Positions 2,928 through 35,835 of a stretch of 38,964 nt of DNA are shown piece by piece. Each line of letters opens with the position of its first letter. Positions within the stretch are counted from its first letter, which is position 1. The position numbers and the translations under genes are program-made. A model generated the notes under the pieces. It saw nothing but the letters and a program-made list of their open reading frames with translations, made no database searches and had not been told where the DNA came from. Source of the DNA: an uncultured Gammaproteobacteria bacterium (lineage in GTDB: Bacteria > Patescibacteriota > Patescibacteriia > UBA2591 > UBA6264); the NCBI GenBank assembly GCA_964528795.1, contig CAZGUY010000005.1, positions 1 to 38,964 of the forward strand, in the 5' to 3' direction.

Positions 2928-2976
2928 GGTTAACCTCTAGGGTTCACCACAGGGCGGTTAGACCGCCGGAATGCAT
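2928..2976 (+). repeat. GC-rich palindromic element, copy A (head module + GGCGGT-tag-ACCGCC triloop hairpin)
   Basis: GGTTAACCTCTAGGGTTCACCACAGGGCGGTTAGACCGCCGGAATGCAT. The head is near-identical to copies at 21406 and 35645. Confidence 0.85.
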
Positions 2977-2983
2977 AAAATAA

Positions 2984-3011
2984 TTGACAAATTTATTATC
3001 TGTGTTATTTT
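2984..3011 (+). promoter_or_regulatory. possible second promoter for the small membrane ORF
   Basis: TTGACA at 2984-2989, 16-nt spacer, TGtTATTTT extended -10-like sequence. Confidence 0.35.
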
Positions 3012-3043
3012 TAAACTAACTTTAAAATAAAAAAGGAGGATCT

Positions 3044-3232
3044 ATGAAACTTTTAATTGGTTTAGCTGTTTTAATTTTATTTCCTATATTTTCAGGAATA
3101 TTTTATTATAAACGCCAAGTTAAGGTCCGAGGTTATAAAACTAAAAGGCAAGTTAAAAGACAAGCCTTTACTATAGGTTTTATAATGTTTTTGCTAATAT
3201 TGGCAGCTGAATTGAAGATTGTGATCAATTAA
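3044..3232 (+). CDS. small two-TM membrane protein with a basic loop (KRQVK repeated)
   Basis: 62 aa, two hydrophobic helices. Strong SD AAAGGAGGAT 4 nt upstream of ATG, own terminator downstream. Confidence 0.6.
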   Translation: MKLLIGLAVLILFPIFSGIFYYKRQVKVRGYKTKRQVKRQAFTIGFIMFLLILAAELKIVIN

Positions 3233-3233
3233 A

Positions 3234-3266
3234 TAAAAAAGGGGCTATTGCCCCCTTTTATTTTTA
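3234..3266 (+). terminator. intrinsic terminator after the small ORF
   Basis: A-run, GGGGC-tatt-GCCCC hairpin, then TTTTATTTTT. Confidence 0.7.
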
Positions 3267-3326
3267 AAAAATTTAAGGCCTGAAAAAGGAAAAGAGAAAT
3301 ACAATTTATTATTTAGAATTAACCCC

Positions 3327-3356
3327 TTGACATATTAAAACAAGTTTTGTTATAAT
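3327..3356 (+). promoter_or_regulatory. tuf promoter P1 (TTGACA-18-TGtTATAAT)
   Basis: Consensus -35 at 3327-3332 and consensus -10 at 3351-3356 with an upstream TG. Confidence 0.55.
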
Positions 3357-3381
3357 TGTTGATAACTTGTAACGGAAAAAG

Positions 3382-3409
3382 TTGCACATAAAAATTTTTT
3401 TGATATAAT
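3382..3409 (+). promoter_or_regulatory. tuf promoter P2 (TTGCAC-16-TGaTATAAT)
   Basis: -35-like sequence at 3382-3387, extended -10 at 3401-3409. Confidence 0.5.
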
Positions 3410-3493
3410 AAATAAAAAGGTCTTAGAGTATATTTTACTTTAAAATTTATACCCTAAATTCAATAAAAATTAATTTGACTAAATAAAAAAATT

Positions 3494-4699
3494 ATGGCAG
3501 CAAAAGAACAATTTAAAAGAGGAAAGCCACATCTTAATGTGGGAACTATTGGTCACGTTGACCATGGTAAAACCACTTTAACCGCAGCAATGCTTAAAAA
3601 TTTAAATGCTGCTGGTTATCAAGTTGACGATAAAAGTATAGACCAAATTGATAATGCTCCAGAAGAAAAAGAAAGAGGAATTACTATTGCTCTTGCTCAT
3701 GTTGAGTATGAAACTGATAACAGACACTATGCTCATATTGATTGTCCTGGTCACGCTGATTATGTTAAAAATATGGTTACCGGGGCTGCTCAAATGGATG
3801 GTGCAATTTTAGTAATTTCTGCTACTGACGGTCCAATGCCACAAACTAGAGAGCATCTTTTACTCGCACGTCAGGTTGGTGTTCCAAGAATCGTAGTATT
3901 CTTGAACAAGACTGACATGGTAGAAGATGAAGAACTAGTAGAATTAGTAGAAGAAGAAGTTAAAGATCTTCTTGAAGAGTATGATTATGATGGTGAAAAC
4001 ACTCCTATTATTAAGGGTTCTGCCTTAAAAGCTTTAGAAAAAGCTTCTGGTGACAAGGAAGATGAAGTTTGCAAACCAATATTTGATTTGGTTGATGCTA
4101 TGGATGATCATTTCCCAGAACCAGAAAGGGATGTTGATAAACCATTCCTTATGCCTATTGAAGACATCTTTACTATTGAAGGTAGAGGAACCGTTGGAAC
4201 TGGTAGAATTGAAAGAGGAAAAGTTCACGTTAAAGATGAAGTAGAAATCGTTGGTCTTAGAGAGACTCAAAAAACAGTAGTCACTGGTATTGAAATGTTT
4301 AGAAAGTCTCTTGAAGAAGGACAAGCTGGTGATAATGCTGGAATCCTTTTACGTGGTATTAAAAGAGATGACATTGAAAGAGGTCAAGTTCTTGCAAAAC
4401 CAGGAACTGTTACACCTCACAAAGAGTTTGAAGCTCAAATTTATGTCCTCTCTAAAGAAGAAGGTGGTCGTCACACTCCTTTCTTTAGTGGATACAAGCC
4501 TCAGTTCTACATTAGAACCACTGATGTAACTGGTGAAATTGAACTACCAGAAGATACTGAAATGGCTATGCCAGGTGATACTGTTAATGCTAAGGTAAAG
4601 CTTTACAAATCTATTGCCTTAGAAGAAAAGCAAAAGTTTGCTATTAGAGAAGGTGGTCAAACTGTAGGTGCTGGAGTAGTTAGTAAGATTGACAAATAA
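3494..4699 (+). CDS. tuf: translation elongation factor Tu
   Basis: 401 aa. [17 protein letters not shown] and NKTD GTPase motifs; conserved full length. Confidence 0.98.
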
Positions 4700-4723
4700 A
4701 ATAATTTATCTTATAATCTATTT

Positions 4724-4786
4724 CGTGGCTCGCCTCTTAATTTGTTATGAAATTTTCAAATTTCAAACAAAGAGGGACGAGCCGCG
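4724..4786 (+). promoter_or_regulatory. long GC-based hairpin between tuf and rpsJ (terminator, processing site or S10-leader-like structure)
   Basis: CGTGGCTCG-CCTCTT-..TTTGTT pairs with AACAAA..AAGAGG-(a)-CGAGCCGCG. About 20 bp in total, AT-rich loop, no U-tract. Confidence 0.5.
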
Positions 4787-4860
4787 ATATATCTATAAAA
4801 AATTTAAATTTAATTTATAACTTAATAAGTTAGTAAGTTCTTTATTTAAAATTAGGAAGA

Positions 4861-34197: not shown

Positions 34198-34207
34198 TTA
34201 TATTAGT

Positions 34208-34633
34208 TTATCCAGGAGTAACATTTTCAAGGTCTTCTAGTGTTTCATAGAGTTGGACTAAGGTGGGAAGAGGAAATTTTTTCTGTTGAATACCAATAGC
34301 AGTAATAACAATTTTTTTAGTAGTGGGGTCTTGATAAATGCTGATATAGTTATCATTGCTCATAGGGACATAAACTTGCACTGCTAAATAAGGATTTAAT
34401 TTAATTTTAATAACTGGTTTGTCAGCTAAAGAGCCCCATTTAGTTAAGATGTATACGAGAAGAGCTTGAGCTGCTTTGAAAAAGTCAGTATTTATGTTTC
34501 TATAACGATGATTTATCATTGAACCGATTTTTACTATTATTTTTTTTCGAACTTGAAACTCTTCGCCAAGTTGAATTTTGTCCAAAATCTTTTCTTCATT
34601 GTCCCAAAGATTGTTATTATTAATTTTTAACAT
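34208..34633 (-). CDS. hypothetical cytoplasmic protein (141 aa), the only minus-strand gene in the window
   Basis: Strong SD AAAGGAGGAT 6 nt upstream of ATG, own promoter and terminator. No family recognised. Confidence 0.7.
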   Translation of the reverse strand: MLKINNNNLWDNEEKILDKIQLGEEFQVRKKIIVKIGSMINHRYRNINTDFFKAAQALLVYILTKWGSLADKPVIKIKLNPYLAVQVYVPMSNDNYISIYQDPTTKKIVITAIGIQQKKFPLPTLVQLYETLEDLENVTPG

Positions 34634-34683
34634 TTTTATCCTCCTTTTTTATTTTAAAGATTATTGTTTTCGAGATTAGTTTT

Positions 34684-34712
34684 AATATAGGAAAATTTTT
34701 TAATTTTGTCAA
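34684..34712 (-). promoter_or_regulatory. promoter of the minus-strand ORF (TTGACA-17-TATATT on the minus strand)
   Basis: Plus-strand TGTCAA at 34707-34712 and AATATA at 34684-34689. Confidence 0.5.
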
Positions 34713-34716
34713 GTTT

Positions 34717-34781
34717 TTAACCTCTTAAATTGCATGGAAATGGAGGTCTTTCCTCCCGAAGGGAGGTGAGACCTCCTATTT
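34717..34781 (+). repeat. GC-rich palindromic element, copy E1
   Basis: TTAACCTCT head fragment, TGCATGGAAA, then the identical 37-nt core at 34741-34777. Confidence 0.9.
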
Positions 34782-34810
34782 GGTGGAAGAAGAGAATTAA
34801 AATATTATAA

Positions 34811-34836
34811 GGTCCTCCTTTGGAGGTGCGACCTCT
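34811..34836 (+). repeat. GC-rich palindromic element, copy E2 (reversed module order)
   Basis: GGTC-CTCC-ttt-GGAG-gtgc-GACC nested palindrome. Confidence 0.7.
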
Positions 34837-34865
34837 ATAGCAATTAAGAAAATTTCCTGATTACC

Positions 34866-34893
34866 TTGACAAAAGGCTAAATTTTGTTATACT
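34866..34893 (+). promoter_or_regulatory. promoter of the secreted-protein gene (TTGACA-16-TGtTATACT)
   Basis: -35 at 34866-34871, extended -10 at 34885-34893. Confidence 0.5.
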
Positions 34894-34945
34894 ATTAAAA
34901 AGTTAATGATCATTAAATTTCAAATTAATAAAAGGAGGATCAGAA

Positions 34946-35581
34946 ATGAGAAAATTTTTAAAGGTATTTTTAGTTTTAGCTTTAGTGTCATCGATTGGAT
35001 TTGGTTTTTCTTTAGGTATTAAAGATTATTATTTCCAAGTAGATGGATTTTCAATGTTTCCTTGGCGAGGTCTTAGCTTTAATAAAGGCTCTTGTCTTTA
35101 TGGAGAGATTTCAACCGGTAAGTTAGCTATAGGAGCATTTCAATATACTAATTGGGATGGTAGTTTAGATAATGACGAGTTAGATCTCACTTTATCTTAT
35201 AGAATGAATCTTGAAAAATTAAGACTTAGTCTCTTGTATACTGAATATAATTTGCCAAGTATTAAAAATGGTTGGAATTATACTAGAGAGATAGGAGTTT
35301 CTTTTCTGGTTTTAAATCATTTTGTAATGGAGTTTTATAAGGATCTTGGAAAGTATAATACTATTGCAGCGGAGTTTGGTGTTGAAACTCAGTTTATACC
35401 AGGTCTTAATGCTAGTATTAGGGGTGGTATAAATCAAAGTCAATGGGTTGATGAAGAAGTTAAGTATTTTATAGGAGAACTTCATAAAGGTTTTGGAAAA
35501 CATTTTATAGTCCATTGTGGGGCAATGTATTCAACTTACAATGGTACTAAACCATTCCTTATAGCAAGTTGGCACTTATAA
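34946..35581 (+). CDS. secreted beta-strand-rich hypothetical protein (signal peptide; amphipathic strand pattern resembling a small beta-barrel)
   Basis: N-terminal MRKFLKVFLVLALVSSIGFGFS. Alternating-hydrophobic segments (LDLTLSYRM, LRLSLLYTEY, IGVSFLVL, AAEFGVETQF, FIVHCGAMYS, FLIASWHL). Strong SD AAAGGAGGAT. Confidence 0.7.
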   Translation: MRKFLKVFLVLALVSSIGFGFSLGIKDYYFQVDGFSMFPWRGLSFNKGSCLYGEISTGKLAIGAFQYTNWDGSLDNDELDLTLSYRMNLEKLRLSLLYTEYNLPSIKNGWNYTREIGVSFLVLNHFVMEFYKDLGKYNTIAAEFGVETQFIPGLNASIRGGINQSQWVDEEVKYFIGELHKGFGKHFIVHCGAMYSTYNGTKPFLIASWHL

Positions 35582-35610
35582 TCTCTAATATATACCTTTT
35601 TAAAACATTA

Positions 35611-35638
35611 GACCGAGAATATTTCTCGGTCTTTTTTT
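35611..35638 (+). terminator. intrinsic terminator
   Basis: GACCGAGAA-tat-TTCTCGGTC perfect 9-bp stem followed by T7. Confidence 0.8.
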
Positions 35639-35644
35639 AACAGT

Positions 35645-35835
35645 GGTTAACCTTAAGGGTTCACCAAAAAGGGAGCCAAAAGGGAGGAAAAGGGAGGTCT
35701 GATCTCCACCCGGAGGTTTGATCTCCGTAGGGAGGTCAAACCTCCCCACCTCCCTACCACTCCCTATCATACCTCACTTTTGTGGGGTAGTTAACAATTG
35801 TTAACTTTTGTTATTAGGTTAACATGTGTTAAACC
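35645..35835 (+). repeat. GC-rich element, copy C: head module, three phased AAAAGGGAGG repeats, GGAGG/CTCC hairpins, ACCTCCC repeats, GTTAAC palindromes
   Basis: See the finding on this region. The head GGTTAACCTTAAGGGTTCACCA matches copies A and B. Confidence 0.85.
35790..35805. promoter_or_regulatory. perfect 16-bp palindrome GTTAACAATTGTTAAC (operator-like)
   Basis: Exactly self-complementary. Two more GTTAAC/GTTAAA sites lie within the next 30 nt. Confidence 0.5.

Follow-up and report, generated by a model that had tools for sequence, protein, structure and literature searches.

What process has placed a set of similar GC-rich palindromes between the genes of contig CAZGUY010000005.1, in a genome that is otherwise strongly AT-rich? 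The window, by which we mean this whole contig of 38,964 bases (30.7% GC), comes from a genome of the Patescibacteria/Parcubacteria type and is the part of this organism's genome that was examined. Genomes of the candidate phyla radiation (CPR)/Patescibacteria are regarded as small, streamlined and repeat-poor. The gene order in the window is comEC, an MBL-fold gene, ndk, tuf, the S10-spc-alpha ribosomal-protein operons, secY-adk-map and ruvX, followed by a glycosyltransferase gene, a TraG-like ATPase gene, the LPG synthase gene, alaS, scpAB, murE, rpoB, rpoC, ftsK and a rodZ-like gene. All the genes but one lie on the + strand, and GC skew is positive along the entire window, the + strand being G-rich and presumably the leading strand. 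With slightly less than even confidence, we favour the interpretation that the GC-rich patches belong to a modular family of palindromic repeats that is specific to this lineage, undergoes gain, loss and recombination as DNA, and resembles doublets of repetitive extragenic palindromes (REP doublets, or REPINs), miniature inverted-repeat transposable elements (MITEs) or mitochondrial GC clusters.

The patches are built from two kinds of module, a 22-nt motif (hereafter the head) and 15-nt palindromic units. The unit pattern GGMGGTNNNACCKCC matched six times in the window, against 0.00 expected, and the head pattern TTAACCTYWAGGGTTCACCA three times (at 2930, 21406 and 35647; 0.00 expected). With a looser definition of the unit, GGNGG-N5-YCNCC with a complementary position 3, 13 units were identified versus 0.04 expected (300 dinucleotide shuffles, maximum of 1). 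All 13 are intergenic and they are spread over six gaps, three of which also hold the head, which bears out the original observation of a GC-rich palindrome family at six or seven intergenic sites. About 90% of the window is coding and about 10% intergenic, and yet 0/13 units lie in genes. The modules have a GC content of 60%, within a genome of 31% GC. The broader claim that every GC-rich patch is intergenic holds for patches of at least 58 nt, but not for smaller ones: of two 44-nt patches, one lies in site A and the other within a gene, and further GC-rich patches of 25-35 nt were located in genes. The sites and the features associated with them are as follows.

2928..2975, + strand: site A, with head GGTTAACCTCTAGGGTTCACCA (2928-2949), one unit, GGCGGTTAGACCGCC (2953-2967), and GGAATG
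21404..21492, + strand: site B, with a degenerate head (21404-21425), unit GGCGGTCGAACCGTC (21429-43) and units GGAGGTCTTTCCTCC (21454-68) and GGAGGTGAGTCCTCC (21472-86)
21513..22082, + strand: open reading frame (ORF) ORF189, the passenger gene of an insertion of about 860 bp, with a 168-bp internal repeat
22085..22139, + strand: site C', with tandem units GGCGGTCAGACCGCC (22088-102) and GGCGGTTTGACCGCC (22107-21) and a decayed unit, GGAGGTGAGTTCTC (22126-39)
34067..34137, + strand: site D, with hairpin CCTGGGGG-TCGTTC-CUCCCGGG (34067-88) and a 37-nt long hairpin, TGGAGGTCTTTCCTCCCGAAGGGAGGTGAGACCTCCT (34101-37)
34208..34633, - strand: ORF141, an orphan gene with its own promoter, Shine-Dalgarno (SD) sequence and terminator, between the identical 37-nt hairpins of sites D and E
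34717..34835, + strand: site E, with a head fragment, TTAACCTCT (34717-25), the 37-nt hairpin of site D (34741-77) and a decayed unit, GGTCCTCCTTTGGAGGTGCGACCTC (34811-35)
35645..35765, + strand: site C, with a head (35645-66), three AAAAGGGAGG repeats (35668-92), units at 35693-707, 35712-26 and 35731-45 and a CCTCCC-rich 3' arm (35746-65), the parts jointly forming one nested hairpin of about 100 nt
35790..35835, + strand: two head-like GTTAAC palindromes, GTTAACAATTGTTAAC (35790-805) and GGTTAACATGTGTTAAACC (35817-35), the second of which is also kept in a relative (L013, from 11903)

Some details differ from those first proposed. The hairpin at 21429-21443 is GGCGGT-CGA-ACCGTC, with one G.T pair, rather than a perfect GGCGGT-NNN-ACCGCC; the head of site B starts at 21404, with a degenerate left half, rather than at 21406; and a unit at 34070-84, inside hairpin 34067-88, had been missed.

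The stems of the 13 distinct units are better paired than would result from random partners (94.9% of cells, versus 87.6% for shuffled partners; 0/500). Positions 3 and 13 form an A-T pair in eight units, a C-G pair in four and a G.T pair in one, and are never unpaired; the compensatory C:G to A:T change proposed for this position is thus real, and could correspond to a single ancestral double change that was copied afterwards. Neighbouring units can form either separate hairpins or one long hairpin, as anticipated, and the complementarity between them gives sites C', D/E and C their long nested hairpin folds (z-scores of -4 to -8). The loops of neighbouring units are also mutually reverse-complementary (TTTGA/TCAAA at site C, for example), which indicates inverted duplication. 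Between sites, the modules are combined as a mosaic. Site A is like site B in its head and GGCGG unit, and the two align end to end, as first noted, save for a GGAGG/CCTCC module present in B, of 37 nt rather than the 40 nt or so originally estimated. Site B is in turn like D/E in GGAGGTCTTTCCTCC..GGAGGTGAG, and B and C' have the common core GGCGGT-NNN-ACCGYC-ACC-(N)-GGAGGTGAGT.

Logan assemblies of SRR12088346/7, which represent the same strain as the window, provided an independent check. Sites A, C' and C and part of E are identical in their contigs; site A was recovered in two contigs (L025/L026), site C' was exact in two others (L021/L022), and two more (L023/L024) start or break inside the 37-nt repeat of site E, at 34748, as expected of a true repeat. 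Since independent contigs reproduce the elements, and short-read assemblies break within the 37-nt repeat, the element sequences are not assembly artefacts.

Relatives were located by AlaRS and RpoC searches, at 77-79% identity (GCA_964494785.1, GCA_035269445.1 and JGI contigs), together with an outgroup at 62%. Their syntenic loci (L004-6, L012-15 and L032; AlaRS identity 77-79% and 62%) are collinear with the window, and the loci of ORF189 homologues (L016-20) were also compared. In all, the comparison DNA amounted to about 84 kb of non-redundant and mostly syntenic sequence from three related lineages. No unit was found in this DNA, nor any intergenic GC-rich patch other than tRNA genes, and there were no units around the ORF189 homologues at other loci. 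In the comparison of orthologous intergenic regions, which had been suggested for the family, the units were absent from the relatives and the elements of the window were situated at indel junctions. In the comparable part of the window, 5/5 element-bearing gaps fall at three places of gene-content difference from the relatives. By hand count, elements are present in 5/6 breakpoint gaps versus 0/4 collinear gaps of more than 40 nt (exact probability 6/252, about 0.02, for sites that are not independent).

At the first of these places, three relatives, one of them the outgroup, have the LPG synthase gene and alaS 2-9 nt apart or annotated as a single fused protein, whereas the window has an insertion of about 860 bp (about 21310-22178) between the two genes. 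Because the two genes are adjacent in all three, the polarity of the difference is resolved, and the sequence comparison indicates an insertion in the window lineage. The inserted DNA comprises, in order, a 25-codon tail of the LPG synthase gene, site B, ORF189, site C' and 40 nt, with B near its left end and C' near its right end, 40-90 nt inside the two ends. At the second place, rpoC is followed in a relative only by a terminator and a promoter and then by a 201-aa gene; in the window it is followed by site D, ORF141 on the minus strand and site E, with an identical stretch of 37 nt on both sides (34101-37 = 34741-77) forming a direct repeat. Finally, between the last accessory gene and ftsK, the relative has amylase and methyltransferase genes (3.9 kb) and the window has site C. 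Homology resumes at about 35806-35817, at a GTTAACATGTGTTAA(A)CCTTT palindrome and the terminator/promoter of ftsK.

The head, ACCTTAAGGGTTCACCA, is the only part of the elements found outside this organism. In a relative with 79% identity (L002/L010), two copies of the head lie 45 nt apart, between a murA-like gene and the 3' end of a tRNA-Ala gene; they are oriented opposite to the flanking genes and overlap a weak promoter-like -35 hexamer in L010. The second outside locus is a 1.1-kb metagenome contig (L009). The GC hairpins are absent from both outside loci, and head and hairpins are therefore separable. Seven copies of the head, from two or three genomes, have an invariant right half and a variable left half, keep a T.C mismatch and show no covariation. 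For these reasons we interpret the head as an imperfectly palindromic, sequence-specific motif and not as a selected RNA helix, and an RNA hairpin was rejected as an explanation for it. The spacer between the heads of the relatives (..CTTAGATTCGTYGG) resembles GGCGG-TTAGA-CCGCC-GG in the window, and the similarity suggests that the GC hairpin beside the head may be a GC-strengthened derivative of an older head-spacer-head element. Scans for the head in GTDB genomes yielded just one relative (L002) and one chance match, and scans of metagenomes two real loci (L009 and L010) and otherwise chance matches, with no other contig of this organism in either case. Viral contigs contained no heads or double heads, and there was no match in a plasmid collection. 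In the metagenome contig (L009, 1-250), a distance of 30 nt separates the head pair from a perfect DnaA box, TTATCCACA, and two TTGTGAAC motifs, and the pair is followed by a bidirectional terminator and then by small Zn-finger-type ORFs; the region could be an origin-like or mobile-element region.

Three accessory genes adjoin the elements. Core genes lack an SD sequence, as originally stated (none was present at tuf, the ribosomal-protein genes, alaS, rpoB, rpoC or ftsK), and a well-placed canonical AGGAGG occurs only at ORF62, ORF141 and ORF211 (at positions such as 3035, 34640 on the minus strand and 34934). These three are lineage-specific accessory genes beside GC elements, and they carry their own promoter-like sites and terminators. 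The small accessory ORFs of a relative (201 and 123 aa) also have GGAGG. The SD/anti-SD mimicry attributed to the units is an automatic consequence of any GGAGG palindrome. ORF141 has no homologue in 5.8 billion clusters; neither it nor ORF211 matched anything in Pfam (E up to 10), NCBIfam, PHROGs or PADLOC. An AlphaFold2 model of ORF141 (pLDDT 67) had no fold match in the PDB (best E = 1.1), and the model of ORF211 was too poor to use. ORF189 belongs to a small family with a variable number of repeats (190-302 aa) and a weak SMBP-like match only. Its homologues in the relatives are found at other loci, after a tRNA or as tandem arrays of paralogues, and have no GC palindromes. The tandem 168-bp repeat of ORF189 (21670-21983) has 79% identity; the possibility that it belongs to a diversity-generating retroelement was dropped by eye, as there were no defining features.

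The transcriptional contexts of the elements are as mixed as first described. Site A lies between a promoter-like site (2884-2912; TTGACA-17-TAAAGT) and ORF62 (3044-3232), site D between the stop codon of rpoC and a separate bidirectional terminator (34162-95), site E between the divergent promoters of ORF141 and ORF211, and site C after a terminator. With Rfam 15, there were no matches at the gathering threshold in the whole window, and a search by E-value (34000-35950 and the head loci of the relatives) returned nothing meaningful, only sub-threshold matches to generic hairpins (miRNA precursors). A single RNA role is therefore unlikely, as had been argued from the contexts, there being no Rfam family and contexts that include positions between divergent promoters and between two terminators. 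Intrinsic terminators were rejected, as T-runs do not follow any of the modules on the + strand; separate AT-flanked hairpins at 3237-59, 34162-95, 35610-32 and 35839-63 are the genuine terminators. TIGR arrays, which occur in CPR bacteria, were also rejected, because the loops of 3-5 nt leave no room for a spacer and there is no box C/D and no Nop-domain Tas protein among the ORFs of the window. Such arrays consist of tandem units with box C/D motifs and two spacers of 8-12 nt, next to a Nop-domain Tas protein (PMC12045711). Group II intron domain V, an origin from the 3' end of 16S rRNA, parS, dif and LexA boxes were dropped by eye for want of defining features.

The one-sided changes in the stems are all G.T on the + strand (7/7, or 4/4 without two decayed units), and the + strand gives the better fold at sites B, C' and D, whereas site C and the head of site B fold better on the - strand. 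This asymmetry suggests a single-stranded form, either DNA or RNA, but is not decisive, because site C and the head of B favour the other strand and a leading-strand C-to-T bias is a confounding factor. As proof of an RNA role, it was rejected as not robust.

Under the interpretation that we favour, the basic module is the 15-nt palindrome GGNGG-T-NNN-A-CCNCC, duplicated in direct or inverted orientation to give doublets and triplets that fold into one long nested hairpin, as in REPINs. The modules would be dispersed, gained, lost and recombined as DNA, near or at places of lineage-specific gene gain and loss, and would possibly mediate both. The hairpins would be extruded in single-stranded DNA and acted upon by a hairpin-recognising transposase (HUH/Y1, RAYT or IS200/IS605-like) or a recombinase, presumably encoded elsewhere in the genome because there is no such gene in the window. 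Recombination between copies would generate the direct repeats around passenger genes, and the stable RNA hairpins formed by transcribed modules in untranslated regions (UTRs) would be a side effect. The sequence data show the family, its structure, its absence from the relatives, its place at the indel junctions, one polarised insertion and the direct repeats around passenger genes, whereas mobility and the enzyme responsible are inferred.

Several observations weigh against this interpretation. The window encodes no transposase, integrase or HUH protein (Pfam and synteny annotation), and a check for an IS200/IS605-type RAYT or other Y1/HUH gene, which the original prediction had recommended, found none in the 39 kb; ORF141, with a single histidine, is without a HUH motif. 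The elements were found to have neither a target-site duplication nor a conserved tetranucleotide in their flanks, nor a consistent GTAG tag. Polymorphism between empty and occupied sites was not seen, the Logan contigs, from the same strain, being identical at the elements, and the polarity of change is settled at 1/3 junctions. Elsewhere, the head is present in low copy number (one locus in the assembly of a relative and one metagenome contig) and lacks the hairpins. The restriction of G.T pairs to the + strand would also fit selection on + strand RNA, or a leading-strand C-to-T bias. Lastly, the observations on this genome cover just 39 kb.

The elements might instead be cis-acting RNA hairpins that evolved in place or arrived with new genes, serving as exonuclease barriers, as RNase processing sites or in SD/anti-SD sequestering. 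Site A in a predicted 5' leader, site D in the 3' UTR of rpoC before its terminator and the intercistronic sites B and C' are all positioned as this would require, the folds are far more stable than those of shuffled sequences (z of -2.3 to -8), the one-sided stem changes amount to G.U pairs on the sense (+) strand, on which B, C' and D fold better, and the three neighbouring accessory genes are alone in having a canonical, well-placed AGGAGG. We nevertheless consider such a function unlikely: site E is upstream of both divergent promoters, site C lies between two terminators with no promoter-like site and is better folded on the - strand, Rfam gives no match and the orthologous UTRs of the relatives have no counterpart, and the GGAGG motifs, at 25-60 nt from start codons, are too far away to act as SD sequences. 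The exact direct repeats around an orphan gene and the placement at junctions would also be left unexplained. That these junctions are places where new spacer DNA exists, and that elements are found only there, would be accommodated by neutral growth, in which small GC-rich palindromes enlarge and multiply locally through hairpin-mediated template switching or slippage in gene-poor spacers made by indels, with no dedicated enzyme and no function. The nested layers agree with such growth (at site C, three AAAAGGGAGG repeats are mirrored by three CCTCCC around three units), as do inverted duplicates a few nucleotides apart and the lack of a transposase in the window and of a target-site duplication. 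However, near-identical modules occur 13-32 kb apart (A/B, B/D/E and the head at three sites), and dispersal or recombination is therefore needed, rather than local growth alone. Moreover, modules of 60% GC have been maintained in a genome of 31% GC despite strong AT mutation bias, with 95% of pairing preserved, and we regard a purely neutral origin as quite unlikely.

The conservation of the head in sequence rather than in pairing, in seven copies, also suits an array of protein-binding palindromes (operators, sites for nucleoid proteins or gyrase, or iterons), with the head as the primary site and the GC units as accessory ones. The paired heads of the relatives, 45 nt apart, overlapping a -35 hexamer in L010 and lying beside a perfect DnaA box in L009, are compatible with this, as are the palindromes of the GTAAC type (GTTAAC) clustered at site C, one of which is kept in a relative, and the tandem GGAGGTTTTYCCTCC iteron-like arrays of GC-rich phages. 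Yet the GC units are absent from relatives that retain the head, no candidate binding protein was identified, and the placement of the elements tracks indels, not promoters. The number, spacing and loop sequence of the units vary freely between sites, unlike in operators, and this explanation appears improbable. Alternatively, the hairpins could be recombination sites of a cassette-like gene-acquisition system, similar to integron attC sites or to the ends of IS200/IS605-type palindrome-associated transposable elements (PATEs), and ORF189 and ORF141 would have entered by site-specific recombination of a chromosomal copy with one on a circular intermediate. The same hairpin is present as a direct repeat around ORF141 (37/37 nt) and a shared core around ORF189, where the elements are 40-90 nt inside the ends of the insertion; homologues of ORF189 occupy other loci in the relatives, including one beside a tRNA, and the head pair of a relative directly adjoins the 3' end of tRNA-Ala, a position well known as an integration hotspot. 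The window has no integrase or transposase, however, and neither a GTTRRRY core nor an R/L-box architecture is seen in the elements; each passenger gene comes with a promoter and terminator of its own, and sites A and C are without a recognisable cassette flanked on both sides. As ORF141 has no homologue anywhere, its mobility is unsupported. We consider entry by cassette very unlikely, and the same low probability applies to its fuller form, an undescribed system of Patescibacteria that would shuttle small SD-bearing orphan genes into conserved operon junctions via GC-rich nested palindromes, the head serving as the protein-recognition module of an enzyme encoded elsewhere.

A burst of GC-rich palindromes that is specific to one lineage and coincides with gene-content changes within the rigidly syntenic region from the ribosomal-protein genes to rpoBC would be a marker of recent genome flux in episymbionts, and would point to the entry route of orphan genes. 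They would also constitute a warning, as metagenome assemblies of such genomes break at these repeats. Should a dedicated enzyme exist, hairpin-based DNA mobility would be extended to a new major bacterial lineage; should there be none, this would be an ordinary repeat family of local interest only.

Other structures were seen along the window. The scpB-murE gap (25265-25480) contains a very stable structure (z = -7.7). Between the arms of its long inverted repeat (GTACGTAGTGTTGTCTCTGGATTATCACC / GGTGATAATCCGGAGACAA...CTACGTAC) lie a tRNA-like acceptor and T-arm, which scored 18.5 bits with the tRNA model of Rfam, below threshold, and were negative with ARAGORN, as well as a TTGACA-N17-TATAAT promoter and, at 25348, a perfect DnaA box, TTATCCACA. 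This layout resembles an invertible-promoter switch or a degenerate tRNA; at the same position, the outgroup has a normal tRNA-Arg(CCG) and a closer relative two extra genes. The other perfect DnaA box of the 39 kb, TGTGGATAA (26887-26895), is at or just past the 3' end of murE, so that both (25348 and 26887) are near this gene, and it is kept in a relative (L013, 1684-1692). Some 25 nt upstream of the rpoB start, an intergenic GC hairpin (27035-61) has a counterpart at the corresponding position in the relative with 79% identity (L013, 1838-1866), with compensatory changes in the upper stem (CGG/CCG versus CA(A)G/CTG). The hairpin has no relation to the repeat family and probably represents a conserved leader structure of rpoB.

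In some relatives, LPG synthase (PF03706) and AlaRS form one protein of 936-963 aa (L004, 10001-12811; P0003 and P0015), and a single call of this kind implies a fusion or a lost stop codon. The TraG/TrwB-like coupling ATPase with a zinc-finger domain (18615-20267) has the same position, between the glycosyltransferase and LPG synthase genes, in all the relatives examined, and gave weak PADLOC matches (mad8, HerA and DndH-like). Lysine-rich (AAA/AAG) tails on ribosomal and other core proteins (6663-6806, 9488-9579, 38861-38964 and others) are the largest "repeat families" of the window and probably caused the contig to end at 38964; one matching contig (L001) extends about 330 nt beyond this position. 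In GC-rich viral contigs (L028, 11943-12026; L029, 976-1053; L031, 9467-9503), tandem GGAGGTTT(T/G)YYCTCC palindromes are separated by spacers of 6-8 nt. These arrays of GGAGG pairs look iteron-like and are similar in form to the units, in unrelated high-GC contexts.

How, then, does the family compare with known systems? It resembles REPs and REPINs in consisting of short, imperfect, GC-rich palindromes, here 15-nt units and 37-nt doublets, that are all extragenic, and in combining singlets with inverted doublets able to fold into one long hairpin as single-stranded DNA or as RNA (PMC3337134). Like these, and like the bacterial interspersed mosaic elements (BIMEs) of E. coli, it has a lineage-specific sequence, mosaic clusters and a placement in UTRs at which secondary effects on mRNA are possible. 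Typical REP/REPIN palindromes measure 20-40 bp, and their copy numbers are in the tens to hundreds per genome. The defining mark of REPs is a tetranucleotide, GTAG or CGTC, that is conserved at one of the palindrome's ends (PMC3733652), whereas here GTAG precedes just 1/13 units (35727-30, before the unit at 35731), the others being preceded by ACAG, AGAG, GAAG, TTCG, ATTG, ACCC or TTAC. The spacers of the doublets are 3-5 nt long, unlike the tens of nucleotides in REPINs, and the 39 kb lacks a RAYT, the transposase that mobilises REPs and REPINs and whose cognate single-copy HUH/Y1 gene is flanked by repeats in REPIN-RAYT systems. Without the defining GTAG/CGTC tag, the family lies outside the canonical REP superfamilies. 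As for MITEs, there are no short direct repeats around the 37-nt module indel of A versus B or around the D/E hairpins, and terminal inverted repeats are not separately definable because the whole element is palindromic. Of the original proposal of a REP/BIME- or MITE-like element, the part that stands is a DNA-level repeat family with modular gain and loss; membership of the REP/BIME or MITE classes is not established, in view of the lack of a consistent tag, of target-site duplications and of any transposase in the window. In a full-text literature search, no paper came up that connects REP, REPIN or MITE families to Patescibacteria.

The ends of IS200/IS605 elements and PATEs are comparable in that similar, same-strand subterminal hairpins occur at both ends of a short passenger-gene segment (ORF141, ORF189), and the wobble pairs, being confined to one strand, would agree with an enzyme that recognises a single DNA strand. 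They differ in that there is no TnpA (Y1/HUH) in the window, no guide or cleavage tetranucleotide was found and the ends are undefined at the nucleotide level. With integron attC sites, which are recognised as folded single strands, the family shares imperfect palindromes around accessory ORFs and a structure that is kept while the sequence varies; it has neither the R''/L''/L'/R' boxes nor a GTTRRRY core where its elements end (the one similar sequence, GTTAGAC, is internal and belongs to the loop of A), IntI, attI and Pc are missing, and the flanked ORFs have their own promoters and terminators, unlike the promoterless attC cassettes. Mitochondria of yeast and Allomyces have GC clusters or double-hairpin elements. 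Repetitive hairpin-forming elements are also present in the mitochondria of sponges (PMC2800124). These elements are organellar and have no sequence relationship to the family in the window, so that the comparison is one of analogy only. What the two have in common is GC-rich nested or double hairpins dispersed in the intergenic DNA of a compact, very AT-rich genome, presence or absence between close relatives, a link to rearrangement and insertion junctions, and the lack of a protein encoded by the element.

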